Shown piece after piece: positions 25,775 to 41,631 of a DNA stretch of 57,039 nucleotides. Made by a program: the position numbers and the translations under genes. Positions within the stretch are counted from its first letter, which is position 1. Every line of letters begins with the position of its first letter. This DNA is from Thermoanaerobaculia bacterium (GTDB lineage: Bacteria > Acidobacteriota > Thermoanaerobaculia > UBA5066 > DATFVB01): contig DATFVB010000156.1 of NCBI GenBank assembly GCA_035260525.1, positions 1 to 57,039 of the forward strand. Reading direction: 5' to 3'. A model generated the notes under the pieces. The model had not been told where the DNA came from, made no database searches, and saw only the letters and a list, made by a program, of their open reading frames with translations.

Positions 25775-26917
25775 GTGGCGGTTTTGCTGCTCGCGAGCGG
25801 CGTCCTCCTCCTTCTCCCCGGCTGCCGCCAACGGACGTCCGTGAGCGTCGCGTCGGCGAGGCGGCAGGACCTCGCGATTCCCGTTCTCTGCGACGGCACG
25901 CTCGAACCGGAGCCGGGAAGCGAGGTGCGGGCGGCCGACGGGGCGACCGTCGACCGCATCGTGGTCCGGGACGGCGCCCGAGTCGCGGCGGGAGACGCGC
26001 TCGTTCGCCTCTCGGCGCCGGATCTCGAGCGGCAGGCGCGGGAAGCGCGGGCGGAGGCGACGGCGCTCGCGGCCGAGCGCGTTTCGCTCGCGGCGGAGGC
26101 GGCGAGTCTCGAGGCCGAGGCCGGGCGCCGCTCCCGGACGGCCGAGTCCGACGAGCGGCTGCTTCGCTCCGGCGCGATCACCGCGGAGGTCCGCGACGCC
26201 GACGCGGCGGCCGCCGACGAGGCGCGGGCGCGCCTCTCCGCCTCCCGCGCCCGCCTCGCCGCGCTCGCTCCCGGCGGAGCGTCGCGCCTCGATCTGGCGA
26301 GGCGCTCCGCGGACGATCTGGAAGCTCGCGTCGCGCGGCTCACCGTCAAGGCGCCGTCGGCCGGAATCGCCTACGGTCTCCCGCGGAGGGAAGGCGAGCG
26401 CGTTGAGGCCGGTCAGGTCGTCGCCGCGATCGCCGATCCCGTGCGCCGGCGGCTCCGCGCCCGCGTCGACGAGCCGGACCTCCCGCGGATCGCTCCCGGT
26501 CAGCCGTTGACCGCGACGTTCGACGGTCTGCCGGGACGCGAGTGGCGCGGAAAGGTCACTGCGGTTTCGAAGACGCTGCGCGACGAGGGGGGCCGGCGCG
26601 TCGGCGATGTGACCGGCGAGATCGCCGACCGCGCCGCCGAGCTCCCGGGCAACGCCTCGCTCAACGTCTCGATCGTGACGGCTTCGCGCCGGGGGGCGCT
26701 CGTGGTGCCTCGCGCGGCGCTCCAGCGCGACGGCGACCGCCGGTTCGTCTTCGTGCTCGACGGCGGCCTCGCGAGGCGGCGCGACGTGGCGGTCGGGCTG
26801 CTCGGCGCGACCGAGGCGGAGATCACCTCCGGGCTCCCGGAGGGGGCGCGCGTCATCCTGCCGGGCGCCGCGCCCTTGAAGGACGGATCGCGGGTCTCGG
26901 CCTCCGGAGCGTCCTGA
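25775..26917 (+). CDS. HlyD/MacA-type periplasmic adaptor lipoprotein
   Basis: The GTG at 25775 gives the lipobox 'LLLLPGC'. It has a barrel-sandwich hybrid ('DRIVVRDGARVAAGDALVRL'), a long coiled coil and a beta-barrel domain. Confidence 0.8.
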   Translation: MAVLLLASGVLLLLPGCRQRTSVSVASARRQDLAIPVLCDGTLEPEPGSEVRAADGATVDRIVVRDGARVAAGDALVRLSAPDLERQAREARAEATALAAERVSLAAEAASLEAEAGRRSRTAESDERLLRSGAITAEVRDADAAAADEARARLSASRARLAALAPGGASRLDLARRSADDLEARVARLTVKAPSAGIAYGLPRREGERVEAGQVVAAIADPVRRRLRARVDEPDLPRIAPGQPLTATFDGLPGREWRGKVTAVSKTLRDEGGRRVGDVTGEIADRAAELPGNASLNVSIVTASRRGALVVPRAALQRDGDRRFVFVLDGGLARRRDVAVGLLGATEAEITSGLPEGARVILPGAAPLKDGSRVSASGAS

Positions 26918-28122
26918 TGTTCCCCCGCGAGGTCTTCGAGGCCGCTTTCCACCGGTTCCGCACGCACCCGCTCCAGACCGCGCTGACGCTCACGGGGCTC
27001 GTCGTCGGGACCGCGTCGATCATCCTCGTCGTCACGCTCGGCCTGACCGGGCGCGGGTACGTCATGTCGCAGATCGAAGGCGTCGGCTCGCACCTCATCT
27101 GGGCGAGCTACGACGGGACCGTGACCTCCGGCGTGTCCCGCACGCTCGACGACCAGATCACCGACGCGGACGTCCGCGCCGTGGCGGCGAGGACCGACCT
27201 CTTCTCCGGGGTCACGCCGCTCGTCGCGCTTCACGACGAGATCGCCGTTCTGTCGGGCGTCCGGAACCTCACCATCCTCGGGACGGACGAGAATTATCCG
27301 GCGGTCCGCAAGAACCTGCGCATCCTCCAGGGACGTTTCTTCGACCGCGACGACGTGGAGCAGCGGGCCAAGGTCTGCGTCGTCAACCGGGAGCTCTACG
27401 GAAAGCTCTGGCGCGGCGACGACCCTCCCGGGAAGACCGTGCGGGCGCTCGACACGACGTTTCGCGTCGTCGGCGAGTTCGAGGAGCCGGTCGACACGCT
27501 CGGGCAGGGCGACGTGACTCCGGACACGATCTTCATTCCCTCGACGGTCGCGTGGTACTTCACCCCCCGGCGGCGCGTCGACACGCTCTTTGCCGAGGTG
27601 CGGGACTTCGCCCGGATCCCCGACGCCGTCGAGGAGACGCAGAAGCTGCTGGCCGAGCGCCACCACACGGGCTCGGTCTACCGGGTCGACAGCATGACGA
27701 CCGTGATCCGGCTCGCGCGCCGGATCTCGCTCGGATTGATCGTGGCGTTCGTCATCGCCGCGGGGATCGCCGTCGTCGTCGGGGGGGTCGGGATCATGAA
27801 CATCCTGCTCGCGTCGGTCGAGCAGCGCACCCGGGAGATCGGGCTGCGGCTTTCGGTCGGCGCCCGGCGGCGGGACATCCTTCGGCAGTTCCTGCTCGAG
27901 GCGCTGATGCTCGGCGCCGCCGGCTCGCTCATCGGGGTCGTCCTCGGGACCGCGATCCCGCTCGTTCTGCGCTGGATCGTCACGCGCGTCGCGATCCGGA
28001 TCTCTCCGGCATCCGCGATGTTCGCCTTCCTCTTCTCGTGTCTGGTGACGCTCCTCTTCGGCGCGGTTCCGGCCTACCGGGCCGCGCGCCTGAGCCCGAC
28101 GGAGGCCCTTCGCCATGAATAG
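26917..28122 (+). CDS. MacB-type permease (MacB_PCD + FtsX domains) without an ATPase domain
   Basis: The ATG overlaps the upstream stop. It shows 'HPLQTALTLTGLVVGTASI' and 'REIGLRLSVGARRRDI'. There is no Walker motif in this ORF or in the operon. Confidence 0.85.
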   Translation: MFPREVFEAAFHRFRTHPLQTALTLTGLVVGTASIILVVTLGLTGRGYVMSQIEGVGSHLIWASYDGTVTSGVSRTLDDQITDADVRAVAARTDLFSGVTPLVALHDEIAVLSGVRNLTILGTDENYPAVRKNLRILQGRFFDRDDVEQRAKVCVVNRELYGKLWRGDDPPGKTVRALDTTFRVVGEFEEPVDTLGQGDVTPDTIFIPSTVAWYFTPRRRVDTLFAEVRDFARIPDAVEETQKLLAERHHTGSVYRVDSMTTVIRLARRISLGLIVAFVIAAGIAVVVGGVGIMNILLASVEQRTREIGLRLSVGARRRDILRQFLLEALMLGAAGSLIGVVLGTAIPLVLRWIVTRVAIRISPASAMFAFLFSCLVTLLFGAVPAYRAARLSPTEALRHE

Positions 28123-29413
28123 CTTTCCCGTTCTCGCCGCCGCGTTCCTGGTCGGGGCCGGCGCTCCCGCGGGCGCGCAGACGCCCGCCTCCGCCCCTCC
28201 GCAGGTCGTGACGCTCCGTTCGGCGGTCGCGGCGGCCCTCGCCCGTTCGCCGTCGCTCGCGGCGGCCGAGGCGGCGAGCGACGAAGGCGCCGCCGGCGCG
28301 CGCCTGGCGCGCGACGCGTACCGCCCTTCGGCGTCGCTCATCGCGACCCCCGGCTACGCGAGCGGGCTCCCGGTCGCGGTCGCGGGCCAGGTGCCGGCGA
28401 TCGCGGGAATCGACGTGCGGCAGACGATCTGGGACCCGGCCGCGAAGGCCGAGGAGCTCGGCTCCGAGGCGGCGCGGGAGGAGCTCGACGGCGCGCGCGA
28501 ATCCGCGCGGATCGAAACGGCGCGCGCGGTCGTCGAGCTCTACGCGCGCTGCCGCGCGGACGGGGCGGTCGCGGAGGCGGCCGCGCGCCGCGTCGACGCC
28601 GCCCAGGAAGTCCTCCGCCACGTCGAGGCCCGGCAAAAGGAAGGTCGCGAGACCGACCTCGCCGTCGAGCGCGCGGCGCTCCTCCTCGCGCGAGCGCGGC
28701 AGAAGTCCCTCGACGCGGCCTCCGACGCCGACCTCGATCTGCGCGAGCTGCGGATGGCGATCGGCGCCTCGCCGGGACGGGAGCTGCTCCTCCCCGACGA
28801 CCCCGCGAGCGTCCTCCCGGCGGAGGTTCCCGACCGCGAGGCGGCGTTCGCCGCGGACCCGGCGCTGTGCGCGCTCGAACGCCGCGGCGAGATCCTCGAT
28901 GCGCTGCGGCGCGCGAAGGCGCGGCCGATCGCGCCCGTCGTGCAGGCGGAGGCGCAATACTGGCGCCTCGCCTCCGGGAGCTACGCGCGGTACTACAACC
29001 ATTTCAAGGCCGACGACTGGAGCGTCGGCGTCGCCGTGGCGGTGCCGCTCTTCTCCGGCGGACGGCTCGCCGAGGAGCGCGCCCGGAGCGAGAGTGCCTG
29101 GAGGCGCGTCGAGGCGCAGGCGCGCGAGCGCCGCGAGACGCTCGACCTCCTCTTCGCGCGCGCGGAGGCGGCCGCTGCCCGCGCGGGGTCGGCCGCCGCG
29201 CTCGCCCGCCGGGCCCGGGGCGTCGCCGAAGGCGCGCTCGAAGCCGCCGAGGCCCTCGCGCGGGAGGGGAGGGGCGACGCGGACGCGCCGGCGCTGCGCC
29301 GCCTCGAGCTCTCCGACGCCGACGAGGAAGTCGCGGACGCCGAGCGCGCGCTCGCGGCGGCCCGGGGCGAGCTGCTTGCGGTGTCGGGGCGCCTCCTCGC
29401 CGCCCTCCAATAA
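28115..29413 (+). CDS. TolC-family outer-membrane efflux protein
   Basis: 432 aa with a signal peptide. 'LRSAVAAALARSPSLAAAEA' starts a twofold repeated coiled-coil/beta pattern. Confidence 0.8.
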   Translation: MNSFPVLAAAFLVGAGAPAGAQTPASAPPQVVTLRSAVAAALARSPSLAAAEAASDEGAAGARLARDAYRPSASLIATPGYASGLPVAVAGQVPAIAGIDVRQTIWDPAAKAEELGSEAAREELDGARESARIETARAVVELYARCRADGAVAEAAARRVDAAQEVLRHVEARQKEGRETDLAVERAALLLARARQKSLDAASDADLDLRELRMAIGASPGRELLLPDDPASVLPAEVPDREAAFAADPALCALERRGEILDALRRAKARPIAPVVQAEAQYWRLASGSYARYYNHFKADDWSVGVAVAVPLFSGGRLAEERARSESAWRRVEAQARERRETLDLLFARAEAAAARAGSAAALARRARGVAEGALEAAEALAREGRGDADAPALRRLELSDADEEVADAERALAAARGELLAVSGRLLAALQ

Positions 29414-29565
29414 GAGCCGGCGCGGCGACCTGTCCCGCCGAAGCCTTGGCGGAGGTGGATACATCGAGCGAGTGCCGTCGCACTGGCGTGCTTGGCGATC
29501 GGCGCGCTCAGTGCTCGCGCACTGGCCGCTTCGCGGCTGATCCGCCGCATTGCGGCGGCCGCGCT

Positions 29566-29680
29566 GGATACCCGGGCGCGTGCCGGCCCGCCGCGCCCTC
29601 AACGTACGCTCTCGGTACGCCTCGGGACGCGGCGTGCCTGCCCGCATCCCGTCTGGCTCGCGTCTGGCCGCGCCTCGTCG
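29566..29680 (-). repeat. Dispersed ~120-nt repeat, copy E (inverted)
   Basis: The reverse complement aligns closely with copy D (GACGGGATGCGGGCA...GAGGCGTACCGAGAGCGTACGTT.AGGGCGCGGC). Possible extra degenerate fragments lie at 29455-29560. Confidence 0.8.
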
Positions 29681-29848
29681 TCGGTGCAACTGAGCTCGCC
29701 CTCGAAGGGAAAGCGGATACATGGAGCCCGGCGGGCGCGTGGCCGGCCGCGGTGTCGTCGCCGTTCGTTCTCGTTTGCGATTTCAGCGAACGGTAGGGCA
29801 TTCGAAGAATTCGACAATCCCAAAGATGCGCGGTAATCGAGCGGCCTC

Positions 29849-29876
29849 TTGACGTATAAGTAAATATCTGTATAGT
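29849..29876 (+). promoter_or_regulatory. Strong-looking sigma70 promoter giving a leaderless tetR transcript
   Basis: TTGACG (29849-29854), a 16-nt AT-rich spacer, then TATAGT (29871-29876). The ATG at 29885 is only 8 nt downstream and has no SD. Confidence 0.55.
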
Positions 29877-29884
29877 TATTTTCT

Positions 29885-30526
29885 ATGGGACGCCGGGCGA
29901 GAGTCACGCGAGCGCAGGTGCTGGCGGCGGCGCGGGAAGCGTTCGCCGAGGGGGGATTCGACGGGACGACGCTCGCCGCGATCGCCGCGCGGCTCGGGCT
30001 CAGTCCCGCCGCGCTGCTTCGCCACGCTCCGACGAAGGAGGCGCTGTTCGGAGCGGCGATGGCGGCGGGCGGTCCCGCCATGTCCGTCCCGCTCGACTTT
30101 CTCGGCGCCCTCGACGGGAGCGAGGACCCGATCGCAGTGCTGCGTCAGATCGCCGAACGGGTGATTCCCGTCCTCGAGGCGACGTTTGCCGAGACGATCG
30201 TCGGCTGGCTTCACGCCCGGAAGAAAGCCGGGCCCGTCGCCATGCCGCTTCCGTTCGACCCGCGCCTTCGCTCCTCGCCGCCGCAGCTGGCGTTTCGCGC
30301 GATCGAGGCGTATCTCCGGAAGGCGGTGCGGAAGGGACGCCTCCGCGTCGCCGATCCCCGGGCCGCGGCGACCGCGTTCCAGGGCGCCCTCTTCGCTTAC
30401 GTCGCGTTCCACAAGCTCTTCCGCATCCTCGACCCGCCGCTGCCGCTCGACCGGTACCTCGCGACGGTCCTCGAGATCTGGGCGCATGGCGCCGCCCCGC
30501 CCGCGCCGAAAGGGAGGCGCCGATGA
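29885..30526 (+). CDS. TetR-family transcriptional regulator
   Basis: The HTH is 'FDGTTLAAIAARLGLSPAALLRHAPTKEALF'. 213 aa. Confidence 0.88.
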   Translation: MGRRARVTRAQVLAAAREAFAEGGFDGTTLAAIAARLGLSPAALLRHAPTKEALFGAAMAAGGPAMSVPLDFLGALDGSEDPIAVLRQIAERVIPVLEATFAETIVGWLHARKKAGPVAMPLPFDPRLRSSPPQLAFRAIEAYLRKAVRKGRLRVADPRAAATAFQGALFAYVAFHKLFRILDPPLPLDRYLATVLEIWAHGAAPPAPKGRRR

Positions 30527-31455
30527 AGAAGAAGATCGCCCTGTCCGTCATCCTCCTGCTCGCGGCGGCGGGCGCGGCGTTCTGGTGGATCACCTCGCGA
30601 GCCCGTTCGAAGCCGCTCGAGCTCTCCGGGTCGATCGAGGCGCGCGACGCGCAGGTCGGCTCGCTCGTCGGGGGGCGGGTCGTTCGCGTGCGGGTCGACG
30701 AGGGAGCGGTCGTGAAGAAGGGGGACACGCTCGTCTTCCTCGAATCGGACCTGCTCGACCGGCAGATCGAGCAGGAGCGCGGCAACGTCGCCGCGCAGAG
30801 GGCGAACCTCGAGAAAGTCGTGCGCGGTCCGCGGACCGAGGAGATCGCCCGCGCGCGCGCGGACTGGGGAAACGCGGAGACGAAACGCCGGCGCAGCGAG
30901 GCCCTGCTCCAATCGGGGCTCCTGAGCCCGCAGGAATACGACGCCGACGCCGCGCAGGCCAGGATGCTCGGCGAGACCTACCGGGAGCTCGCGCGCGGCA
31001 ACCGCCCCGAGGACATCGCCCAGGCGCGGGCCCAGCTCGCCGCCGAGGAGGGCCGGCTGGCCTATCTCCTCGAGCAGAAGGACGAGCTGGTCGTCCGCGC
31101 GCCCGCCGACGGGATCGTCCAGACCATGGACCTGCGTCCCGGCGATCTCGTCGCGGCCAACCAGGGGATCGTGACGATCCTCGAGCCGTCCGAGATCTGG
31201 GTGCGCGTCTACGTGCCGGAGCCGAAGCTCGGCCTCGTCCGCGTCGGTCAGTCGGCGGCGATTTCGATCGACACGTTTCCCGGCCGGAGCTTCCGCGGAC
31301 GCGTCGTCGAGATCCGCCAGCAGTCGGAATACACGCCGAGAAACGTGCAGACGCTCGAACAGCGCGGCGACCAGGTCTTCGGCGTGAAGATCGCGATCGA
31401 GCCCGCGCCGGAGCTCAAGCCCGGCATGACCGCCGTCGTCCGGCTGTCCCCGTGA
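30523..31455 (+). CDS. HlyD-family membrane-fusion protein (ABC-2 associated)
   Basis: There is an ATGA overlap with tetR. It has an N-terminal TM helix, 'VRVDEGAVVKKGDTLVFLE', a coiled coil and 'RVYVPE...VGQSAAISIDTFPG'. Confidence 0.85.
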   Translation: MKKKIALSVILLLAAAGAAFWWITSRARSKPLELSGSIEARDAQVGSLVGGRVVRVRVDEGAVVKKGDTLVFLESDLLDRQIEQERGNVAAQRANLEKVVRGPRTEEIARARADWGNAETKRRRSEALLQSGLLSPQEYDADAAQARMLGETYRELARGNRPEDIAQARAQLAAEEGRLAYLLEQKDELVVRAPADGIVQTMDLRPGDLVAANQGIVTILEPSEIWVRVYVPEPKLGLVRVGQSAAISIDTFPGRSFRGRVVEIRQQSEYTPRNVQTLEQRGDQVFGVKIAIEPAPELKPGMTAVVRLSP

Positions 31456-32450
31456 CGGGGAACGGGGACCTCGGCATCGAGGTTCGAAGCGTGACGCGCG
31501 ACTTCGGTCCGGTGCGCGCGCTCGACTCGGTCTCGCTGTCGATCTCGCGGGGGGAGATCTTCGGGCTCCTCGGCCCGAACGGATCCGGCAAGTCCACGCT
31601 CATCCGGATTCTCTGCGGCCTGCTCGTCCCGACCGCCGGCGCGGCTTTCGTCGACGGCCTCGACGTCTCGACCTCGGGCGAGGAGGTGCGCCGCCGGATC
31701 GGCTACGTTCCGCAGCGGTTCTCCCTCTACGAGGACCTGACGGTGCTCGAGAACCTCGACTTCTTCGCGTCGGTGTACGGCCTCGAAGGAGAAAAGGCGA
31801 AGGAGCGCCGGCAATGGGCAATCGACCTCACCGGGATCGGCCCGTACCGCGAGCGCCTGGCGGCGCAGCTCTCGGGCGGATGGAAGCAGCGACTCGCGCT
31901 CGCCGCCTCGCTCATGCACGATCCTCGCGTCCTCTTCCTCGACGAGCCGACGGCGGGGATCGATCCGGTCGCGCGGCGCGAGCTGTGGAACCTCCTGTTC
32001 GAGCTCGCGGGCCGCGGGACGACGGTCCTCGTCGCCACCCACTACATGGACGAGGCGGAGCGATGCGGCACGGTCGCGTACCTGTACCTCTCGAAGCTGC
32101 TCGTCTACGGCAAGCCCGACGAGCTCACGCGGTTGCCCGAGGTCACGCCGGGAGGGATGCGGCGGATCGAGGCCGCGTGCGATCAGGGGGTCGCGACCTT
32201 GATGGGCCACGCCCGGACGCTGCCGTACGTCGAGGACGTGACGATCTTCGGCAATTCGCTGCACCTCCTCGTGCGCGCCGGCCGGGATGACGCGGCGATC
32301 GCCCGCGATCTCGAGAGGGAGACCGGCTCGCGGGTCGTGGTTCGCCCGATCGAGGCCGCGCTCGAGGACGTCTTCGTGCGGCTGACGAAGATCCACGCCG
32401 GGCGAAACGGAGCTCCGGTTTCCCCGGCGGGCCCGGGAGGGAATCCATGA
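31452..32450 (+). CDS. ABC-2-type transporter ATP-binding protein
   Basis: There is a GTGA overlap with the upstream gene. Motifs are 'GPNGSGKST', 'LSGGWKQRL' and 'VLFLDEPTAGIDP'. Confidence 0.9.
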   Translation: MTGNGDLGIEVRSVTRDFGPVRALDSVSLSISRGEIFGLLGPNGSGKSTLIRILCGLLVPTAGAAFVDGLDVSTSGEEVRRRIGYVPQRFSLYEDLTVLENLDFFASVYGLEGEKAKERRQWAIDLTGIGPYRERLAAQLSGGWKQRLALAASLMHDPRVLFLDEPTAGIDPVARRELWNLLFELAGRGTTVLVATHYMDEAERCGTVAYLYLSKLLVYGKPDELTRLPEVTPGGMRRIEAACDQGVATLMGHARTLPYVEDVTIFGNSLHLLVRAGRDDAAIARDLERETGSRVVVRPIEAALEDVFVRLTKIHAGRNGAPVSPAGPGGNP

Positions 32451-33553
32451 GGGGCCTCCGTGCGGTTCTCCGCAAGGAATGGACCCAGATGTTCCGGGAT
32501 CAATGGACCCTCCGGATGGCGTTCGTGATCCCCATCCTGGAGCTCGTGCTCTTCGGCCTGATCGACACCAACGTGCATCACGTTCCGACTGCCGTCTTCG
32601 ATCAGAGCCGGACGCCGGAGAGCCGCCAGCTGGTGCAGGACCTGGTGAACACGGGCTACTTCGAGATCCGCTCCCTTCCCGGCTCCGCGGAGGACGTTCG
32701 GCGGGAGATCGTCGCGGGAAAGACCTCGGTGGGAGTCCTGATCCCGCCCGATTTCGCGCGGCGCCGCTTGAACGGCGAGCCGGCCGATTTCCAGGTCCTG
32801 ATCGACGGCTCCGACTCGACGATCTCGTCGCAGACGCTCGCGGCGGCGAGCGGCGTGGCGTTCCAGCGCTCGCTCGAGGAGATCGCCGCCCGCGCGCACG
32901 TCACCGACCTGCCCTTGCGGCTCCACCCGCTCCTGCTCTTCAATCCCGACTCGCGAAGCGCGAATCTCCTGATCCCCGGGCTGATCGCCATCCTGCTGAC
33001 GTTCTCGGCGACGTTTCTCGCCGCGTTCGGGATCGTCAAGGAACGCGAGCGGGGAACCCTCGAGCAGCTGATGGTCACCCCGGTCTCGCCGGCCGCCGTC
33101 GTGATCGGAAAGCTCCTTCCGTACCTGGCGCTCGCCTTCGCCCAGCTGATCGTGATCCTGATCCTGATGGCGACGCTCTTCCGTGTGCCCATCCACGGCA
33201 GCGTTGCGCTCCTCTTCGGACTTTCGACGATCTATCTCTTCTCGCTCCTCGCGCTCGGGCTCCTCGTGTCGTCGCGGGCGAAGACGCAGATGGAGGCGAT
33301 CCAGCGGGCGCAGGTCATTCTGCTTCCGTCCTTTCTCCTCTCCGGCTACTTCTTCCCGATTTCGTCTCTTCCCGCCTGGCTGCGGCCCATGGCCTACGTG
33401 CTGCCCGCGACGTACTACATCAAGATCGCCCGGGGCATCATCATCCGCGGCGCGGGGTTCGTCGACCTCTGGCCGAGCGTGGCGGCGCTCGTGGCGATTT
33501 CCGCGATACTCGTCGCGGCGAGCACGCGGGCTTTCAAGAAGACGATCGGCTAG
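32447..33553 (+). CDS. ABC-2-type transporter permease
   Basis: 368 aa with an ATGA overlap. It has an N-terminal TM helix, a large periplasmic loop and then 5 TM helices. Confidence 0.85.
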   Translation: MRGLRAVLRKEWTQMFRDQWTLRMAFVIPILELVLFGLIDTNVHHVPTAVFDQSRTPESRQLVQDLVNTGYFEIRSLPGSAEDVRREIVAGKTSVGVLIPPDFARRRLNGEPADFQVLIDGSDSTISSQTLAAASGVAFQRSLEEIAARAHVTDLPLRLHPLLLFNPDSRSANLLIPGLIAILLTFSATFLAAFGIVKERERGTLEQLMVTPVSPAAVVIGKLLPYLALAFAQLIVILILMATLFRVPIHGSVALLFGLSTIYLFSLLALGLLVSSRAKTQMEAIQRAQVILLPSFLLSGYFFPISSLPAWLRPMAYVLPATYYIKIARGIIIRGAGFVDLWPSVAALVAISAILVAASTRAFKKTIG

Positions 33554-33573
33554 GCGCGATACCATCGCGCCTG

Positions 33574-35448
33574 ATGTGCGGGATCGCCGGCCTCGTGGAT
33601 CTCGACGGCGTCCCGCCGGACCGCCCTCTCCTGCTGTCGATGATGCGGCGGATCGCGCATCGCGGCCCCGACGGCGGAGGCTGGATGGAAGACACGGCGG
33701 GGTCGATTCTCGAGGGCGGCCGCGAGTCGTCGGTTCCCGCCTCCGGACGGCGCTTCGCGCCCCGCCGGCCCGGCGCCTCCGCGGCGCTCGGCCATCAGCG
33801 CCTCGCGATCACCGATCTCTCGGAGGCGGGCCGGCAGCCGATGTCCCGCGGCGACGGGCGGTGGTGGATCGTCTTCAACGGCGCGATCTTCAACGCGCCC
33901 GAGCTCCGGCGGGAGCTCGAGGAGGCGGGCGAGCGCTTCACCAGCGCGACGGACACGGAGGTCCTCCTCGCCGCGTGGATCCGGTGGGGCGCCGCGGCGC
34001 TCGACCGGTTCAACGGGATGTGGGCCTTCGCGATCTGGGACGCGCGGGATCGCGAGCTCGTCTGCGCGCGCGACCGGTACGGGATCAAGCCGTTCTATTG
34101 GACGACCGCGGGGGACGTCTTCGCGTTCGGATCGGAGCCGAAGGCGCTCCGGCCCGTTCGCCCGGCGGCGCCCGACCTGAAGCTGGTGGCGGACTATCTC
34201 GCCTGGGGGTCGAGTATCCCCGGGGGCGACGCCACCGGCTACGACGGCTACCACGAGCTTCCGGCGGGCTCGATGCTCCGCACGGACGCGTCGGGCATCC
34301 GGGTGGAGACATGGTACGACCTCGACGAGCGGGTCCGCGACGCTCCGCCCGCGCCGCCGTTCGAGGAAGCCGCCGCGCGACTGCGGGAGCTCCTCGACGA
34401 CGCGATCCGGATCCGCCTCCGGGCCGACGTCCCCGTCGGACTCCTGCTTTCGGGCGGCGTCGATTCCTCCGGGATCGCCGGCATCCTCGCGGCACGTCAC
34501 CGCGGCGCGTTCTCGGGTCCGGCGATATCGCTCCGCTATCGGCGGAAGGAGATCGACGAAAGCCGCTACTCGGACGCGGTTCTCCGTGCGACGGGGATTC
34601 CGGGCGTATACGTCGAACCGACGCCCGAGAGCTTCGATCGAAACCTCGACGAATACATGGCGAGAACCGGCCACCTGACCATGGGCTCGGTCGGGTACGC
34701 CCAGTACCTTCTGTACGCGCGGGCGCGCGCCGTCGGGCTTCCGGTGATCCTGGTAGGGCAGGGATCCGACGAGCTCTTCGGCGGCTACGAGCCCTGGGAC
34801 GTGCACGTGACGCAGCTCTGGAACCGGGGACGGAAGTGGACGGCCGTCCGCGAGGGCCTCCTCTCCGGGCGGCGTCAGTGGGGATGGCCGATCGGGATCC
34901 GGCATACCGTCGGCGTCCTGCGGACGGCCCGGCGGCCCCCGCGATGCCGGTGCGACCGCGCCGGGACGCTCCAGGATCACCAGCGGCACTTGCTGCTCCT
35001 CGACTACCTGCCCGCGATCCTCGAGGGCGAGGATCGCAACTCGATGGCCTCCGCCGTCGAGTCGCGGCTGCCTTTCCTCGATCATCGGATCGTCGAATTC
35101 GCGCGAACCCTTCCCCCGGATTACCTCTGCCGCGGCGGCTGGACGAAGGCCGTGCTTCGCCGCGCGCTCGACGGACTCGTTCCGGAATACGTGCTCCGGC
35201 GGCCGCGCAAGCTCGGTCTCCCCGGCCCGCTCGCGGGGCTGGCCTGCCCGCCGGAGGCCGACGCCGCGCGCCGGCGCCTCATCGAAGGCGGGTGGTTCCC
35301 GGCATCCCTCGTCGGCGAGGCCGGCTCCGCGCTCTCCGCCGCCGGGCAGATGCGCCTTCGCCTTCTCGACGCCTGGGCCCGAAGCTGCCTCGACCGGCCC
35401 GCGGTCAGCCCGGCGCCGCCGGAGGAGTCCCGCGCCACCGTTGCGTGA
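33574..35448 (+). CDS. asnB: Asparagine synthetase B-type glutamine amidotransferase (class II GATase + PP-loop synthetase)
   Basis: 'MCGIAG' provides the Cys2 nucleophile. Also present are 'HRGPDG', 'NGAIFN', the PP-loop 'LLLSGGVDSS' and 'EDRNSMA...ESRLPFLD'. It starts 20 nt after the permease gene, and its 3' end overlaps array paralog 1 by 44 bp. Confidence 0.88.
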   Translation: MCGIAGLVDLDGVPPDRPLLLSMMRRIAHRGPDGGGWMEDTAGSILEGGRESSVPASGRRFAPRRPGASAALGHQRLAITDLSEAGRQPMSRGDGRWWIVFNGAIFNAPELRRELEEAGERFTSATDTEVLLAAWIRWGAAALDRFNGMWAFAIWDARDRELVCARDRYGIKPFYWTTAGDVFAFGSEPKALRPVRPAAPDLKLVADYLAWGSSIPGGDATGYDGYHELPAGSMLRTDASGIRVETWYDLDERVRDAPPAPPFEEAAARLRELLDDAIRIRLRADVPVGLLLSGGVDSSGIAGILAARHRGAFSGPAISLRYRRKEIDESRYSDAVLRATGIPGVYVEPTPESFDRNLDEYMARTGHLTMGSVGYAQYLLYARARAVGLPVILVGQGSDELFGGYEPWDVHVTQLWNRGRKWTAVREGLLSGRRQWGWPIGIRHTVGVLRTARRPPRCRCDRAGTLQDHQRHLLLLDYLPAILEGEDRNSMASAVESRLPFLDHRIVEFARTLPPDYLCRGGWTKAVLRRALDGLVPEYVLRRPRKLGLPGPLAGLACPPEADAARRRLIEGGWFPASLVGEAGSALSAAGQMRLRLLDAWARSCLDRPAVSPAPPEESRATVA

Positions 35449-36670
35449 CCCGCTGGAGCGTGCCGCCGAGGAGCCCGCGGTCGAGGCGGCGGAGCTTCCC
35501 CTTCCAGCCCGCGTCGCGGTGCCACCGTTCGATCCGGCGCGCCTCGGCGATCTTTGCGCGCACTGCCGCCGCGATCCGGCCGGCGCCCCCCCGTTCGAGA
35601 AGCGGGACGAGCGGAGCCCAGTAGAGCGCGAAGTTCTCCGGTGAGTATCCGAACGTCATCGACTCGATCGCCTCGGGCGTGACCCGCCGGCCGCCGAAAG
35701 CGGCGAAATCGTCGAGAACGCCGAGCGCGGCGAGGGCGGTCATCGTGCGGAGGCACTTCTCGCAGCGCCCGCAGTTCGACTCGCCGTCCGGCAGCGGTCC
35801 CTCGAAGCACACCTGGAGGTGCCGGCGCGCGACGTCCCACCCGGCGATCTCCGCGATCTTCTCCGAGCGGCCCGGGCGGAACTCCTCGTGCCGTATTTCG
35901 ACGCCGGAGCTCGAGAAGAGAGGGTCGAGCAGCGGATGGGTCCCCCAACGGTGGAGCGCGCCCGCGTCGAGCGTCGCCGCGATCGACGCCGAGCCGATCC
36001 GTTGCGCGAAGGCGTGGGCGGCCGAAGCGAGGAGCGCGCCCTGGTCCTGGGGGCCGGCCAGCACGACGCCGCCCAAAATGCGGAAGTTGCCGTCGATCTC
36101 CACGACTTCGAGGTCGTTCCGGGCGGCGATCTCCGCGACGGCCTTCGCGTGGCGGCGGGCGAGATCGCCGGCGCGGGGTGTGGGCACCTCTTCGGCAAAC
36201 GACATGCTCCGAATGGAAATCGCGTCGCGGAAGGACGCCGGGTGCCCGGCGGGGAAGGCCTGCCGGTTCTTCCGGAGCAGATGAAGGGAATCGACTCCGC
36301 CGGTCAGGAACAGGGCCGACCGTTCTCGCCGCCCGGCGAACGGACGAAAACCGTCCGACGGCTCCAGGGCCGCCGGAGGGCGGTCGCGCTTCCACCATGC
36401 GGAGAGGAGCCGCTGGACGGCTGCGATCCCGTCTCGGAGGCGCGGACAGACCGCTCCCTCGACCGCGATCCGCCGTTCTCCGGAGCGCCAGGCGGGGACG
36501 ACCGAGGCGAGCAGGAAAGGGTGCGGGTCGGCTCCGAGTACGTCGGCCCCCGTTCCGCGGGAGGTGAACGTCAGCTCGAAGGGAGGGCGGCCGGATTCTT
36601 CCCATTCGACCCGTGCGGAGAGCGCGACGCGGTCCCCGTTCCGCGCGAGGGAAACGCCGCCGATCCTCAT
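35405..36670 (-). CDS. Tandem-array paralog 1 of 10 (last transcribed): PP-loop / QueC-like four-Cys protein, function unknown
   Basis: 421 aa. Motifs are 'GERRIAVEGAVCPRL', 'FLTGGVDSL', 'WGTHPLLDP', 'VCFEGPLPDGESNCGRCEKC' and the tail 'AGWKGKLRRLDRGLLGG'. The ATG at 36668-36670 overlaps the stop of paralog 2. Confidence 0.85.
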   Translation of the reverse strand: MRIGGVSLARNGDRVALSARVEWEESGRPPFELTFTSRGTGADVLGADPHPFLLASVVPAWRSGERRIAVEGAVCPRLRDGIAAVQRLLSAWWKRDRPPAALEPSDGFRPFAGRRERSALFLTGGVDSLHLLRKNRQAFPAGHPASFRDAISIRSMSFAEEVPTPRAGDLARRHAKAVAEIAARNDLEVVEIDGNFRILGGVVLAGPQDQGALLASAAHAFAQRIGSASIAATLDAGALHRWGTHPLLDPLFSSSGVEIRHEEFRPGRSEKIAEIAGWDVARRHLQVCFEGPLPDGESNCGRCEKCLRTMTALAALGVLDDFAAFGGRRVTPEAIESMTFGYSPENFALYWAPLVPLLERGGAGRIAAAVRAKIAEARRIERWHRDAGWKGKLRRLDRGLLGGTLQRVTQRWRGTPPAAPG

Positions 36671-37905
36671 GTCGCCCTTGCCACCGCGCGGCGGATCGCG
36701 AGGAGACGTCCGCCGAGGAGCCGGCGGTCGGCGCGGCGGAGCAGGCCCTTCCATCCCGCGTCCTCGAACCACCGCGCCTGCCGTGCGGCGACGGCGAGCC
36801 GGCGCTCCACCGCACCGGCGAGGTCGTCGCGGCGGCCGCGGAGGAGCGGAAGGAGATCGCGCCAGTAGGGGGCGTAATGCGGACCGAAGTCGAAGGCCCC
36901 GACCGTCCGCGCGAGATCGAGGGCCGGGAACTCGCGCGCCTCCTCGAGACGTCCGAAAGCGGCGAGCGCGGTCATGGTGCGGAGGCACTTCTCGCAGCGG
37001 CCGCAGTTGAGGAGCGGCGGCGGGGGCCCGCTCATGCAGACGAGGAGCCGCGAAACGGCGCCTCCCGCAGCGCAGAGCTCGGCGATCCGGTCGGGCCGGG
37101 AGATTCCGATTCCCTCGTGGCGGACCGCAACGGCGGCGCTTCCGAGAGCGGCGTCGATCAGGGGATGCGTCCCGAGCGGGACGAGAATCGTCACATCGCG
37201 CCCGGAGGCGAGCGTCGCCGAGCTCCATCGGGACGGGAAGAGGTGCGCGGCGGACGCGAGCACGGACGAAAGCGAACGTTTCGCGATGAACTCGATTTCC
37301 GGCGCGAGCGCCGTGACGTTCGTCGCGACCGACACGAGCGCGAGACCCGATTCCGCGGCGGTCTCCTCCAACACGGCCCGGGTGCGGGCGTAACCGGCGA
37401 ACGGCTCCGCCGGGTCGAGCTGGTCCGGCGCGTAGAGGCCGAAGACGGCGAGCGCGTCGGTAAACGATTCGGGATGGTCGCGGGGGAAGTCGGCGCGGTT
37501 GCGACGCAGCAGGTGCGTCGAGTCGACACCCCCCGTCAGGAAGACCGCCGCCCGCGGCGGGCGGCGGGGAAAGGCGGCGCAAAACCCTTCGCGCGCCTCG
37601 ATCCGGGGCGGCTCCGAAGACGTCCCGCGCCACCCGTCGAAGACGCGCGCGATCGTGAGGAGTCCTTCGGCGAGCCGCGGGCAGACCGGTCCCTCGAGCG
37701 CGACTCGGCGCTCCCCGCTCGAGGCCGCCGGAAGGAATGCCGCCGCGAGGACCGCGTCGGACGAGGCGGCGAGATCGGCCGCAGCGGCGCCTTCGACTTC
37801 CCACCAGACGTCGAGGGGCGGACGCCCGCTTTCCTCCCAGAGGACGCGGGCGGCGACGCGGGCGCCCGCGCGGGTCGGCTCCCGACGAAGGTCGACGATC
37901 CTCAT
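36667..37905 (-). CDS. Tandem-array paralog 2 of 10
   Basis: 412 aa. Motifs are 'GERRVALEGPVCPRL', 'FLTGGVDST', 'LGTHPLIDA', 'VCMSGPPPPLLNCGRCEKC' and 'AGWKGLLRRADRRLLGG'. There are ATGA overlaps at both ends. Confidence 0.85.
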   Translation of the reverse strand: MRIVDLRREPTRAGARVAARVLWEESGRPPLDVWWEVEGAAAADLAASSDAVLAAAFLPAASSGERRVALEGPVCPRLAEGLLTIARVFDGWRGTSSEPPRIEAREGFCAAFPRRPPRAAVFLTGGVDSTHLLRRNRADFPRDHPESFTDALAVFGLYAPDQLDPAEPFAGYARTRAVLEETAAESGLALVSVATNVTALAPEIEFIAKRSLSSVLASAAHLFPSRWSSATLASGRDVTILVPLGTHPLIDAALGSAAVAVRHEGIGISRPDRIAELCAAGGAVSRLLVCMSGPPPPLLNCGRCEKCLRTMTALAAFGRLEEAREFPALDLARTVGAFDFGPHYAPYWRDLLPLLRGRRDDLAGAVERRLAVAARQARWFEDAGWKGLLRRADRRLLGGRLLAIRRAVARAT

Positions 37906-39149
37906 CGCGCCCCTCGGGCGATCCGCCGCCGGAACGCGAGCGCGCGCCCGCCGAGCCACCGCCGGTCGAGACGCCGAAGCAGGCCGGTCCATCCGCGATC
38001 CCGCTCCCACTCCTCCGCGCGGCGGTTGGCCTCGAGCCTCTCGTCGATGGCATCGGCGAGGTCGGGGCGCCCCGCGCGGCGCGCCCCGGAAGCCATCGGT
38101 TCCCAGTAGTAGTCGAGACGGCGGTACGATGGGACGCCGGGGAGGCTCCGGATCGCATCGGCCGTGACGTCGCGCGGGAACGTCTCGGACTCCGCGAGCG
38201 CGCCGGCGACGAGGAGCTCCACCATCGTTCGCAGGCACTTCTCGCAGCGACCGCAATTGAGCAACGGGTCGCCGGGAAGCGGGAAGCTGCAGGTATAGAG
38301 GTGGCGGCGGCCGGGCTCGGATCCTCCCACCCGGGCCGCCTTTTCTTCGCGCTTTATGCCGATCCCGTCGTGGACGAAGCGCACGGCCGACGTTCCGAAG
38401 AGCGGGTCGAGCAGGGGGTGCGATCCCCAGGGATGGAGACCCGACATGACGTCGTCGGACGCCGCGAGGGCGACGGTCGAGACTCGTCCGGAGAGGAGCT
38501 GCGCGATTGCGGCGAAGAACGAGCCGTGCGACTCGAGTGCGAACGAGCGAAGGCTTCCCTGGAGCCCGAGCAGGTTCGTGGAGACCACCGTCAACGGCAG
38601 CCCGGCTTCGGCCGCGGTCGCCCGGACCGCGCGTTCCGATCGCGCGCCCGTCTCGGCGAGCTGCGGTTCGTCCGGAAAAAGGCCGCAACGCGTGACGAAG
38701 ATGGCGCGCCGGACCGCGGCCGGGTGCTCCCGCGGTAAGCCGGCTCCTCGCGAGAGGAGGAGGTCCAGGGAGTCGAGCCCGCCGCTGAGGAAGATCGCTT
38801 CCCCTCCGGCGGCGGGAGGATAACCCGCGCGAAATCCTTCGGAGGGCTCGAGCGCCGGCATCCGGCGGTCGCCGCCGTACCAGCTCCCGAGGACCGCCGC
38901 CGCGGCGCGGAGCCCGTCGCGGAGGACGGGGCAGATCGCCCCTTCCACGGCGATGCGGCGCTCTCCATCGCGGAGGGCGGCGACGAACACCGCGATCAGG
39001 AACGCGTTCGGGTCGGCGGCGGGGACGTCGCCGGAAAGGAACGAGAAATGGAGGTCGAACGGCGGGCGGCCGGCGTCCTCCCACTCGACGCGCGCCTCGA
39101 TCGTGTCTTCCCCGGCGGTCCCGGTGCGGCGAATCGCCCCGATCTTCAT
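37902..39149 (-). CDS. Tandem-array paralog 3 of 10
   Basis: 415 aa. Motifs are 'GERRIAVEGAICPVL', 'FLSGGLDSL', 'WGSHPLLDP', 'TCSFPLPGDPLLNCGRCEKC' and 'RGWTGLLRRLDRRWLGG'. Confidence 0.85.
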   Translation of the reverse strand: MKIGAIRRTGTAGEDTIEARVEWEDAGRPPFDLHFSFLSGDVPAADPNAFLIAVFVAALRDGERRIAVEGAICPVLRDGLRAAAAVLGSWYGGDRRMPALEPSEGFRAGYPPAAGGEAIFLSGGLDSLDLLLSRGAGLPREHPAAVRRAIFVTRCGLFPDEPQLAETGARSERAVRATAAEAGLPLTVVSTNLLGLQGSLRSFALESHGSFFAAIAQLLSGRVSTVALAASDDVMSGLHPWGSHPLLDPLFGTSAVRFVHDGIGIKREEKAARVGGSEPGRRHLYTCSFPLPGDPLLNCGRCEKCLRTMVELLVAGALAESETFPRDVTADAIRSLPGVPSYRRLDYYWEPMASGARRAGRPDLADAIDERLEANRRAEEWERDRGWTGLLRRLDRRWLGGRALAFRRRIARGAR

Positions 39150-40396
39150 CGCGGCCGTCGCGCCCGCCGGGCCCGGCGGAGCGCGCCGCCGAGCCACCGC
39201 TCGTCGGTGCGCCGCAGCGCTCCCTTCCACCCCTGGGCCCGGAACCAGCGGTCGTGCGCCTCCTGGCGGGCGATCAGCCGTCCGATCGCGGCGGCGAGGT
39301 CCCGGCGGCCCGCGTCGCGCGCAGCGGGGGCGAGCTCGTCCCAGTAATAGCTCATGATCCGGAACCCTTCGAGAGGCGCGATCGCATCGATCGTCTCGGC
39401 CGAAACGCGTCCCGGGGGAAACGTCGGCGGTTCCTCGATTCCGGCGCCGACGAGGAGCGAGACGCGGGTCCGCACGCACTTCTCACAGGCTCCGCAGTTC
39501 GCCGTCTCGCCGGGGAGGGGGCCCTGGCCGCACACGTAGAGCGACGCGAGAGCCGCCGGCCATCGGGCGATCGCCGCCGTCTTCCGGAGGCGCGACGATT
39601 CGATTCCCCGGTGGTGGACGGCGACGGCGGCGGTGCCGAAGTTCGGGTCGATGAGCGGGTGCGATCCCCAGGCCCGGAGGCCCTGAACCAGGTCGTGCGA
39701 AGCGCTGATCGTCACGTCGGTCAGATCCCGCCCGGCGGCTATTCCGGCGGCCGCGAGCAGCGAACCGTGCGTCCACCGCATATGGCCCTCGGCCTCCGGC
39801 TCCAGAACGGCGGCGTTCGTGGAGACTTCCGATCGTTCCAGGCCGGCGGCGTCTGCGATCGCCCAGACCGAGCGAGAGCTGCGGGCTTCGACGTGCGCGC
39901 GGCGTTCCGGAGAGGAGTCGACCGGAAAAATGAAGTCGCCCAGGCGGACCGCCTCGCGAAACGAGAGCGGGTGGTCGACCGGAAGATCGCGACGGTTCCG
40001 GAGGATCTCGAAGGTCGAGTCGATCCCCCCCGAAGCGAGAATCGCCGCGCGGCGGCGCGCCGCCGGACGCGGAGGAACGAAACCGCCCGCCGGCTCGATC
40101 GCGGGCGTCGGCCCGGGATGCCGATGCCACGCGCCGAGGAGCGCGGCGGCCGCGGCGATCCCGTCGCGCAACCGCGGGCAGACGCTTCCCTCGACCGCGA
40201 TCCGCCGTTCTCCCCGGCGGTACGCCGGCATCGCCGCCGCGGCGACGAACGCATTCGCGTCGACTTCGCGCCCCGACGGCCCGGCGACGTCGAAAAAGAC
40301 GACGAACGCGGGCCGGTCCGCCTCTTCCCAGACGATCGTCGCCTCGGTCCGCACGCGCCCGGCGGCGGAGGCCGTCCGAAATCCTTCGATCCTCAC
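39146..40396 (-). CDS. Tandem-array paralog 4 of 10
   Basis: 416 aa, an exact ORF in the track. Motifs are 'GERRIAVEGSVCPRL', 'LASGGIDST', 'WGSHPLIDP', 'VCGQGPLPGETANCGACEKC' and 'QGWKGALRRTDERWLGG'. Confidence 0.88.
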   Translation of the reverse strand: MRIEGFRTASAAGRVRTEATIVWEEADRPAFVVFFDVAGPSGREVDANAFVAAAAMPAYRRGERRIAVEGSVCPRLRDGIAAAAALLGAWHRHPGPTPAIEPAGGFVPPRPAARRRAAILASGGIDSTFEILRNRRDLPVDHPLSFREAVRLGDFIFPVDSSPERRAHVEARSSRSVWAIADAAGLERSEVSTNAAVLEPEAEGHMRWTHGSLLAAAGIAAGRDLTDVTISASHDLVQGLRAWGSHPLIDPNFGTAAVAVHHRGIESSRLRKTAAIARWPAALASLYVCGQGPLPGETANCGACEKCVRTRVSLLVGAGIEEPPTFPPGRVSAETIDAIAPLEGFRIMSYYWDELAPAARDAGRRDLAAAIGRLIARQEAHDRWFRAQGWKGALRRTDERWLGGALRRARRARRPR

Positions 40397-41631
40397 GCGA
40401 AGAGCCTGCGGTAGAGCTTTTTGATCCGGCCGCCGAGGACGTCGCGGTCGAAACGCCGGATCGCGCCGGTCCAGTCGACGCCTTCCACCCGCTGCCGGTG
40501 GTGGATTGTCGCGCGGATCTTCCGCTCGATCGCGGAGGCGAGGTCACCGCGTCCGCGCGCGCGGATCGGGTCGACGAGCGTTCCCCAGAAATATTCCGTT
40601 CCGTTGTCGAACTCGAGACCGCGGATCGTCTCCGCGGTCACGCGCACGGACGGGAAGGACCGCGCGTGCTCGAGCACGCCGCTCGCTTCCATCTCGACGA
40701 GCGTCCGAACGCACTTGGTGCACCGGCCGCAGTTGATCGACGCGCCGGCGGGAGCGTTGCCGCAGCAGATCAGCCGCGCGAGCGCGGCGGTCCGTTCTCG
40801 GAGGCGTGCGACCTTCTCGACGCGGCGGAGCCCGAGCGCCTCGTGCCGGATCGCCAGCGCCGCGCTTCCGTAGCTCGGGTCGAGGAGCGGGTGGCTTCCC
40901 CACGGCACGAGGTGCTCGCCGGGCCACGAGGAGCCGAGGGCGACGGTGCTGAAGCGTCCGGCCAGCAGGTGCGCGCCCGATAGGAGCGCGGCTCCGAGAA
41001 AGCGGTGGGCGAAGAACGCGAGATCGTCGTCCAGGCGCCGCAGGTTCGTCGTGATCGGCGCGAGCCTCACGCCGACGTCGGCCGCGATCTCGCGGAGCGG
41101 GATCTCGAGGCGGGCGTACTGCGAGACGGCCCACGGCGACTCCTCCGCTCCCGGGTAGTCGAGCCCCCGGATCCACAGCGCGTGCGAGAAGCGAGCAGGA
41201 TGGCCGGCCGGGAAGTCCTCCCGGTTGGAATAGAAGAGGTGGAGGGAGTCGATGCCGCCGGTCAGGTAACCCGCGGAGGCCGGCTCGGCGCGCGGAGTCG
41301 CCGCCCTCCATGCGTCGCGGGGCTCGATGCGGGGGACCGGCCCCGTGGCCGGGTGCCAGGACCGGATCACTCCCCCGACGGCCTCGAGGCCCGCCGCGAG
41401 GAGCGGACACACCGCGCCTTCGACGGCGATCCGCCGTTCCCCGTGGCGCAGCGCCGGCACGAACGCGGCGGCGACGAACGCGTTCGGGTCCGGGAAGGCG
41501 TCGGCCGCGAGGTCCTCGTCGAGGTCCCACCAGATCTCGACGGGCGGGCGGTGCGAGTCCTCCCAGACGACGGTCGCCGCGAAACGCGTCCCGAAGGTCC
41601 CCGGTCCCGTCCGGATCCCGCCGATCCTCAT
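40393..41631 (-). CDS. Tandem-array paralog 5 of 10
   Basis: 412 aa. Motifs are 'GERRIAVEGAVCPLL', 'YLTGGIDSL', 'WGSHPLLDP', 'CCGNAPAGASINCGRCTKC' and 'VDWTGAIRRFDRDVLGG'. Confidence 0.85.
   Translation of the reverse strand: MRIGGIRTGPGTFGTRFAATVVWEDSHRPPVEIWWDLDEDLAADAFPDPNAFVAAAFVPALRHGERRIAVEGAVCPLLAAGLEAVGGVIRSWHPATGPVPRIEPRDAWRAATPRAEPASAGYLTGGIDSLHLFYSNREDFPAGHPARFSHALWIRGLDYPGAEESPWAVSQYARLEIPLREIAADVGVRLAPITTNLRRLDDDLAFFAHRFLGAALLSGAHLLAGRFSTVALGSSWPGEHLVPWGSHPLLDPSYGSAALAIRHEALGLRRVEKVARLRERTAALARLICCGNAPAGASINCGRCTKCVRTLVEMEASGVLEHARSFPSVRVTAETIRGLEFDNGTEYFWGTLVDPIRARGRGDLASAIERKIRATIHHRQRVEGVDWTGAIRRFDRDVLGGRIKKLYRRLFA

Follow-up and report, generated by a model that had tools for sequence, protein, structure and literature searches.

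Introduction

Efflux systems composed of a TetR regulator, a HlyD-like adaptor, an ABC ATPase and an ABC-2 permease are known from Escherichia coli, where they are encoded by cecR(ybiH)-ybhGFSR and rbbA-yhiI. Enzymes of the QueC family activate a carboxylate in an ATP-dependent manner and then transfer it to ammonia or an amine. In QatC, the PP-loop core, which carries a Zn-Cys4 site, is preceded by an alpha/beta extension at the N-terminus and followed at the C-terminus by basic helices which grip the protein substrate (PMC13279940). A PP-loop sugar amidotransferase of the WbpG type sits in O-antigen loci (PMC13329287). Here we describe a locus of a Thermoanaerobaculia bacterium in which a TetR-HlyD-ABC-ABC-2 exporter cassette, a glutamine amidotransferase of the AsnB type (hereafter AsnB) and an array of ten tandem PP-loop paralogs lie side by side. 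The locus is part of a 57,039-nt stretch of DNA (contig DATFVB010000156.1, assembly GCA_035260525.1), the whole of which is termed the window.

We favour, with moderate confidence, the reading that AsnB is a specialised glutamine amidotransferase acting in the same amide-forming pathway as the array, and that its adjacency to the exporter is lineage-specific, with AsnB probably transcribed from the tetR promoter. All parts of the locus come from known superfamilies, and there is nothing unusual about the exporter; the novelty lies in a large QatC-like array to which one distinct AsnB clade is constantly paired.

AsnB and the large paralog arrays

The window has about 70% G+C, and its genes were called from third-position GC with every junction read base by base. 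Relatives were gathered as 171 loci (labelled L001-L171) from species-representative genomes and metagenomes and were scored by tblastn with the window proteins. Large arrays, defined as 4-10 tandem copies of the paralog, were found among the loci examined only in Thermoanaerobaculia or uncultured Acidobacteriota, in 11 genomes (the window, L001, L003, L004, L005, L008, L010, L029, L104, L167 and L171). In all 11, an AsnB of one clade converges on a run of paralogs, and wherever that end of the locus is visible the run faced by AsnB is the one beside the MacB genes. Six genomes (the window, L001, L005, L010, L029 and L104) have AsnB in a terminal position; in the other five (L003, L004, L008, L167 and L171) it is embedded in the array, and additional paralogs run divergently away from its 5' end. 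Both L003 and L171 carry two AsnB copies inside the array. AsnB has stayed with the array through rearrangements. An earlier note on this DNA had proposed to examine the co-occurrence of the paralogs with AsnB and ABC-2 genes, and the answer differs between the two: AsnB accompanies 11 of 11 large arrays, but the ABC-2 cassette only eight. Arrays without AsnB, which the same note had named as contrary evidence, do occur in the family at large but not among the large acidobacterial arrays. The array of L167 is interrupted, between paralogs and AsnB, by genes for one Hpt protein and a pair of response-regulator receiver proteins (8478-9617 of that locus).

The AsnB gene (33574-35448, plus strand) encodes 624 residues with a GATase_7 domain (Pfam PF13537, 3e-43) and an Asn_synthase domain (PF00733, 3e-57). 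Residues 1-7 read MCGIAGL, placing the nucleophile Cys2, conserved in all clade members, directly after the initiator methionine, and the PP-loop SGGVDSS is intact; with both sites in place, the previous description of AsnB as a glutaminase plus PP-loop enzyme is well founded. The protein passes the asparagine synthase model TIGR01536 (377.9 bits, cut-off 267.1) and falls below the cut-offs of the specialised models TIGR03108 (294.9 of 816.9 bits), TIGR03104 (272.9 of 570.1) and the lasso-cyclase model NF033535 (251.6 of 525). Its closest relative of solved structure, by sequence, is the natural-product hydroxyamidotransferase 7ylz (E 2e-49); with E. coli AsnB (1ct9) it aligns in fragments (E 2e-31).

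Members of the clade, which counts about 43 clusters, have in common some 28 extra residues within the glutaminase domain (about residues 38-68). A score gap sets the clade apart: its full-length members reach 494 bits or more, at 46-100% identity, whereas full-length AsnB proteins outside the clade score at most 365 bits at no more than 41% identity and lower coverage, with one 488-aa fragment at 377 bits. Members at least 57% identical to the window AsnB were array-linked in every case examined, and three at 46-50% identity (L165, L166 and L170) stand alone without an array. L165 shares a contig with L009 in a metagenome-assembled genome that also holds array locus L010, so this organism has a second, non-array AsnB. 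A 17-aa C-terminal tail is found only in the window, L005 and L029. A lasso-cyclase or other role in the synthesis of ribosomally synthesised and post-translationally modified peptides was considered for AsnB and rejected, given the sub-cut-off score, the intact glutaminase cysteine and the failure to find precursor or B-protease genes among the neighbours. Where the array and the MacB ATPase gene face each other across their gap, the only short open reading frames coincide with a non-coding repeat. The earlier note had found no candidate precursor-peptide gene either.

The paralogs and their wider family

The array (35405-47884, minus strand) comprises ten intact paralogs, and each junction between them is a 4-nt overlap. 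Paralog 1 (421 aa, 35405-36670) lies next to AsnB and has orthologues at the same position in L001, L003, L004 and L008; paralog 2 (412 aa, 36667-37905) completes a triad whose order, paralog 2 - paralog 1 - AsnB, is kept in the window and in the same four loci, and spans both locus types. They are followed in tandem by paralogs 3-6 (37902-39149, 39146-40396, 40393-41631 and 41628-42884) and paralogs 7-10 (42881-44131, 44128-45378, 45375-46628 and 46625-47884). The paralogs are 37-43% identical to paralog 1, and in a tree of 75 paralogs each one from the window has orthologues in other genomes. The array is ancient, and its division into old orthogroups speaks for separate steps or sites and against redundancy.

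Within the SGGxDS PP-loop, GGxDS is invariant in the ten paralogs, the leading residue being S or T, and GxDS is present in all 81 aligned homologues. A Cys4 site (Cx11CxxCxxC, with an NCGxCxKC motif) is kept in all ten, its cysteines C290, C302, C305 and C308 (paralog-9 numbering) being invariant in the 81 sequences, and the C-terminus is arginine-rich. Searches with a single sequence or with 10- or 81-sequence profiles against Pfam, NCBIfam, PADLOC and the sequences in the Protein Data Bank (PDB) gave no match, nor was the QueC profile PF06508 matched (thresholds of E<=0.01 or 0.1 for Pfam and NCBIfam). For paralog 9, an AlphaFold2 model derived from the 81-sequence alignment has a mean predicted local distance difference test score (pLDDT) of 93, and its only significant PDB match in Foldseek is QatC (9y01_B), which aligns over the full length (429 columns) with an E value of 1e-6 and a probability of 1.0. 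The TM-score between the two is only 0.41, which a different domain arrangement may explain. The model suggests that the paralogs share the fold of QatC, which belongs to the QueC family of PP-loop enzymes and carries a Zn-Cys4 site. Since carboxylate activation belongs to QueC-family chemistry, the predicted fold and the PP-loop make the term PP-loop adenylating enzymes, used for the paralogs in the earlier note, a fair one.

A promoter-like site, TTGACA-N17-TAAGCT (47921-47950, minus strand), precedes the start of paralog 10 by about 37 nt and is kept in L005 and L029; a consensus scan missed it because of its weak -10 hexamer. The start codon of paralog 10 is TTG in the window and GTG or ATG in relatives. 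Because a hairpin repeat and this conserved site lie between the MacB genes and the array, the array probably has its own promoter.

Clustered at 50% identity, the paralog family counts 8661 representatives with a threshold of E<=1e-3 and 3369 with E<=1e-30 and, by the profile searches above, is a sizeable family lacking a curated Pfam-A or NCBIfam profile and an assigned function. Outside Acidobacteriota its members mostly occur as one or two copies per locus. At about 67 loci, mostly of Desulfobacterales (e.g. within L025-L082 and L105-L164), a single paralog forms an operon with genes for a GNAT protein and RimK (an alpha-L-glutamate ligase), the RimK protein scoring 176 bits on TIGR00768 (cut-off 143). 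This layout hints, by analogy, that the paralog may amidate or ligate a glutamyl carboxylate. In L070 (7751-12446) the operon is followed by a glutamate-carboxypeptidase-like M20 gene. At a further set of at least 14 loci, from phyla including Chloroflexota and Nitrospirota and from some Desulfobacterales, the paralog lies behind a Wzm/Wzt polysaccharide exporter, among glycosyltransferase, pyruvyl transferase and PGA_cap genes. One such locus is L041 (7820-15599), where glycosyltransferases and a pyruvyl transferase are encoded near the exporter and the paralog or paralogs behind it; one or two paralogs behind Wzm/Wzt are also seen in L018, L021, L043, L059, L083, L113, L128 and L154, and other loci of this type add PGA_cap and GMC oxidoreductase genes. 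Both contexts use carboxylate amidation or ligation, which may be a hint, again by analogy, to the chemistry of the paralogs.

The exporter cassette

In the window, the cassette is preceded by a promoter-like site, TTGACG-16 nt-TATAGT (29849-29876, plus strand), in which 29849 is the first base of the -35-like hexamer. It matches 10 of 12 consensus positions and is the sole sigma-70-like site in a 7.5-kb consensus scan (29300-36800), where shuffled sequences lead one to expect 0.3. A spacer of 8 nt separates its -10 element from the tetR ATG at 29885, which fits a leaderless or near-leaderless mRNA. No TetR operator in the form of a simple inverted repeat was found near the promoter with 6-nt seeds; instead, an AT-rich -10/operator block is kept across other copies of the cassette. 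The genes, all on the plus strand, are tetR (29885-30526; Pfam TetR_N and TetR_C_7), hlyD for a HlyD/YbhG-like periplasmic adaptor or membrane fusion protein (30523-31455; HlyD_D23/HlyD_3), a GTG-initiated gene for a DrrA/RbbA-like ABC ATPase (31452-32450; ABC_tran) and one for an RbbA/YbhS-like ABC-2 permease (32447-33553; ABC2_membrane_3), joined by ATGA, GTGA and ATGA junctions, respectively. Their Pfam domains and 4-nt overlaps mark them as one tightly coupled unit of regulator, adaptor, ATPase and permease, although all scores on NCBIfam equivalogs are sub-cut-off (HlyD model PRK03598, 172.4 of 393 bits; RbbA, 230.3 and 216.1 of 1050). The 20-nt gap to AsnB (33554-33573) is nearly filled by a perfect 8-bp hairpin, GGCGCGAT-ACC-ATCGCGCC, which ends 2 nt before the AsnB ATG and carries neither a T-run nor a Shine-Dalgarno sequence; it could modulate read-through or translation. 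No terminator-like site was found in this gap.

Direct reading bears out every coordinate that the earlier note had given for the four overlapping genes and for AsnB 20 nt further on, and Pfam and NCBIfam uphold its domain assignments for exporter and AsnB. Its proposal that all five genes are co-transcribed from 29849 fares well as far as the operon-like packing behind one promoter-like site is concerned; the co-transcription itself is what we infer from that packing. However, AsnB does not hold up as the closing gene of an exporter operon once other genomes are considered. A cassette is present at the distal end of the locus in eight of the 11 array genomes and abuts AsnB in five of these (the window, L001, L010, L029 and L104), with gaps of 11-103 nt. 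In L008, L167 and L171 it converges on a paralog rather than on AsnB, and since paralogs of the opposite strand lie between AsnB and the exporter, AsnB cannot be part of the exporter operon in these genomes. In L003, L004 and L005, AsnB is kept and there is no cassette at the locus. L005 has flanks like those of the window, with AsnB directly abutting the outer-membrane factor gene of an adaptor - MacB - outer-membrane factor operon, which in the window lies upstream of tetR (25775-29413, plus strand); with the same flanks and no cassette, L005 indicates that the cassette is dispensable. The apparent closing of the exporter operon by AsnB is, as these gene orders suggest, a lineage-specific juxtaposition, AsnB not being an ancestral member of the operon.

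In conservation, and by a wide margin in distribution, the permease exceeds both AsnB and the paralogs. A search with it gave 3570 matches at E<=1e-30, the best 120 of which are all at least 68% identical; none of these best 120 comes from the contigs of the exporter-less L003, L004 and L005. Cassettes with permeases 71-82% identical occur in L168, L169 and on a 412-kb contig, in neighbourhoods of unrelated content with no AsnB or paralog within 8 kb, and in the two of these that were compared (L168 and L169) the AT-rich promoter/operator and the leaderless ATGGGACG start are kept. The earlier note had put forward, as a plausible reading, an exporter dedicated to the array; the occurrence of such a cassette with the same promoter where no AsnB or paralog is nearby speaks against this. 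Judged from these comparisons, the cassette is best described as an autonomous, TetR-gated, YbhGFSR/RbbA-like efflux unit with its own promoter and operator. In the permease tree the array-adjacent copies mostly cluster, with non-array members interspersed, a pattern which would fit vertically inherited adjacency and neither proves nor excludes a functional tie.

Flanking MacB genes, repeats and surroundings

Directly upstream of the array, on the same minus strand, lies a MacA/MacB-type exporter (48144-52665) composed of an adaptor (51529-52665), two MacB permeases (50145-51368 and 48874-50148) and an ATPase (48144-48881). This MacA-MacB-MacB-ATPase set occupies the same place and strand at eight of eight loci with that end visible, making it the most constant transporter neighbour of the array, steadier than the ABC-2 cassette; it does not figure in the earlier note. 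In L167 two more paralogs lie upstream of the MacA-MacB genes, so that the transporter is embedded in the array.

Three copies of a GC-rich repeat of about 110 nt, all intergenic, occur in the window: one at 24360-24465 (minus strand), one 3' of the outer-membrane factor gene (29575-29680, plus strand) and one, inverted, 3' of the MacB ATPase gene (48005-48110, minus strand), the last being kept in L005 and L029. They are about 80% identical, contain the exact common core GTACGCTNTCGGTACGC and form a long hairpin (z about -2, -2 and -0.4); Rfam gave no match to the repeat. The idea that the repeats border a mobile unit from tetR to the array was rejected, as a third copy lies outside that block and the copies are hairpin-forming and stand 3' of operon ends. 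They may be a repetitive extragenic palindromic (REP)-like or terminator element of the lineage.

The surroundings are otherwise those of a housekeeping chromosome (metH, tyrS, purL and fur), and no sign of mobility of the array locus was found. An S-adenosylmethionine riboswitch (816-930, plus strand; RF00162, 76.9 bits) precedes genes for a fusion of homocysteine S-methyltransferase and methylenetetrahydrofolate reductase and for a B12-dependent methionine synthase. A gene for a XerC/XerD-like tyrosine recombinase (23193-24131, plus strand) lies beside a DinB_2 gene, with about 1.6 kb between the recombinase gene and the operon for adaptor, MacB and outer-membrane factor that follows downstream, and a DinB_2 gene flanks the array locus in L001 and L005 too.

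Interpretation and alternative explanations

The plus-strand block of the window would join two evolutionary units, an autonomous efflux cassette and an AsnB that is the fixed partner of large arrays. In the window lineage no paralogs lie between the two, and this leaves AsnB 20 nt behind the permease gene, where it is probably read through from the tetR promoter. AsnB would hydrolyse glutamine at Cys2, adenylate a carboxylate at its PP-loop and then amidate it, and each paralog, with its QueC core and QatC-like N- and C-terminal extensions, would adenylate a carboxylate and join it to ammonia or an amine. AsnB and the array together would thereby put several amide bonds on one shared carboxylate-rich substrate. 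Either neighbouring pump, of MacB type or ABC-2 type, or the two together may export the product, but the data do not require export. A more far-reaching version, which we regard as speculative and unlikely to be right, is that the 7-10 anciently diverged paralogs and their dedicated AsnB form an unrecognised assembly or decoration line free of non-ribosomal peptide synthetases, in which each paralog would adenylate a particular carboxylate and make one specific amide bond, the scaffold being peptide-like, polyglutamyl or a polysaccharide, or would instead act on a protein N-terminus, AsnB would supply a glutamine-derived terminal amide, and the product would be exported by the MacB and/or ABC-2 systems and sensed by TetR.

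Several observations weigh against an AsnB specialised for the array. AsnB was found near paralogs at none of 145 one- or two-copy loci and in none of the three-copy arrays of three other phyla (Nitrospirae, Anaerolineales and Planctomycetota loci), and all array genomes belong to one uncultured class of Acidobacteriota, so that the 11 of 11 may owe something to inherited synteny and not to selection alone. In no case does AsnB share a strand with the run on which it converges, and it is therefore never co-transcribed with it. It also beats the equivalog cut-off for a true asparagine synthase and keeps all catalytic motifs, and a housekeeping role in this organism is conceivable. Finally, an exporter at eight of 11 array loci, with the adjacent permeases largely in one part of the tree, makes a functional tie between exporter and array possible.

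This last point leads to the single module proposed in the earlier note, in which AsnB, ten PP-loop enzymes and a TetR-gated ABC-2 exporter would make and export one product, with TetR sensing that product or an intermediate. Its first part, the tie of AsnB to the array, agrees with our results, and it is the exporter as a fixed part that does not. The distal exporter is found in two configurations, beside AsnB or beside a paralog; the array-adjacent permeases are the closest to that of the window (75-94% identity) and mostly form one group; the L010 genome has a second, distant cassette (L169, 71% identity), which marks the adjacent copy as a distinct lineage; and in other phyla the paralog is often found beside an ABC-2 exporter of the Wzm/Wzt type. 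However, Wzm/Wzt pumps are a different ABC-2 subtype from the YbhS/RbbA-like permease of the window, three array genomes without the exporter keep AsnB (the flanks of L005 being otherwise identical), orthologous cassettes exist away from AsnB and paralogs, and the cassette family is far larger than the AsnB clade (3570 matches against about 43 clusters). We therefore consider the single module somewhat improbable. A different alternative is that AsnB is the housekeeping asparagine synthetase, or a cell-wall amidotransferase, and owes its place to inherited gene order. The TIGR01536 score, the intact Cys2, GATase_7 domain and SGGVDSS motif, the metH, tyrS, purL and fur neighbourhood and the restriction of all examples to one bacterial class are compatible with this, but AsnB stays with the array through rearrangements, in varied positions and duplicated in L003 and L171, it belongs to a distinct clade with its own insertion, one array genome holds a second, stand-alone AsnB, and 7ylz is nearer to it than the E. 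coli enzyme. Taken together, these points make a housekeeping AsnB distinctly unlikely.

A further alternative, compatible with the others, concerns the convergent coding overlap of AsnB and paralog 1 (35405-35448, both strands). As the earlier note had stated, AsnB (ending at 35448, plus strand) and paralog 1 (stop codon 35405-35407, minus strand) overlap by 44 nt, which encode the tails ...RPAVSPAPPEESRATVA and ...WRGTPPAAPG, and no terminator-like site (a hairpin with a T-run) is present at the junction where the two units collide. Antisense or transcriptional interference here could inversely couple the exporter and AsnB with the array, and tightly packed convergent ends of AsnB and a paralog are the rule in relatives. 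The overlap itself, by contrast, is not conserved: spacings in relatives are +3, -4, +13, +21, +25 and +257 nt, and the overlap is made by the 17-residue AsnB tail and a short extra tail of paralog 1, neither of which is conserved. RNA folding at the junction is close to shuffled controls (z -1.3 and -2.2), and a bidirectional terminator or special RNA structure was rejected on these weak scores and the missing terminator-like site. We consider a regulatory overlap very unlikely and read the 44 nt as a by-product of tight packing.

If the link between the array and an AsnB specialised for it is functional, it would provide the first pathway context for a large paralog family without a profile, and would show the QueC/QatC scaffold at work beyond nucleobase and defence chemistry, in multi-enzyme amide-forming metabolism. 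The pairing of AsnB clade and array could then be profiled across genomes, and the genes are compact enough for heterologous expression. The locus also calls for caution, as five genes that look like one operon can have come together recently, from a self-contained efflux cassette on the one hand and the gene of a pathway enzyme on the other.

Comparison with known systems

The cassette of the window has the same gene order and domain set as the E. coli ybhGFSR and rbbA-yhiI systems. Its best NCBIfam matches are the HlyD model PRK03598, DrrA and RbbA, and adaptors of related loci weakly match HH_YBHG. Unlike ybhGFSR, it has one permease gene rather than two, and the AsnB gene that follows after 20 nt is peculiar to the window lineage.

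Two likenesses concern relatives of the paralogs and are analogies only. The N-acetylglutaminylglutamine amide trio consists of a GNAT/ATP-grasp synthetase, an AsnB-type amidotransferase that carries out the amidation and a peptidase, and the GNAT-RimK-paralog operon of Desulfobacterales puts the paralog in the amidotransferase slot; however, the RimK protein scores only 56 of 569 on the trio model and the paralog is without a glutaminase domain. Similarly, like WbpG in its O-antigen loci, some relatives of the paralogs are found in Wzm/Wzt-glycosyltransferase loci.

In overall build the paralogs come closest to QatC of the QatABCD system, sharing over the full length an N-terminal extension, a QueC core and basic C-terminal helices. 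Cap9 of type IV CBASS (cyclic oligonucleotide-based antiphage signalling system) is a QueC-family PP-loop enzyme known to modify protein N-termini, and QatC is thought to do so. In contrast to QatC, to which they are about 15% identical, the paralogs match neither PF06508 nor the Qat systems in PADLOC and have no QatA, QatB or QatD neighbours; they form 7-10 ancient tandem copies with AsnB, and elsewhere lie in RimK/GNAT or polysaccharide loci rather than in defence islands. A Qat-like anti-phage role was rejected as the principal explanation on account of the missing partners and PADLOC match and of the metabolic and polysaccharide operons in which relatives are found.

The specialised enzymes of the AsnB family (the hydroxyamidotransferase 7ylz and those covered by TIGR03104, TIGR03108 and NF033535) have the same two domains, the N-terminal Cys and the SGGxDSS motif, and the AsnB of the window resembles them further in being fixed beside pathway-specific genes. 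It differs in passing only the general asparagine synthase model and in having its own glutaminase insertion, and QatC-like PP-loop partner genes such as those of the array belong to none of the pathways in which the specialised enzymes act.

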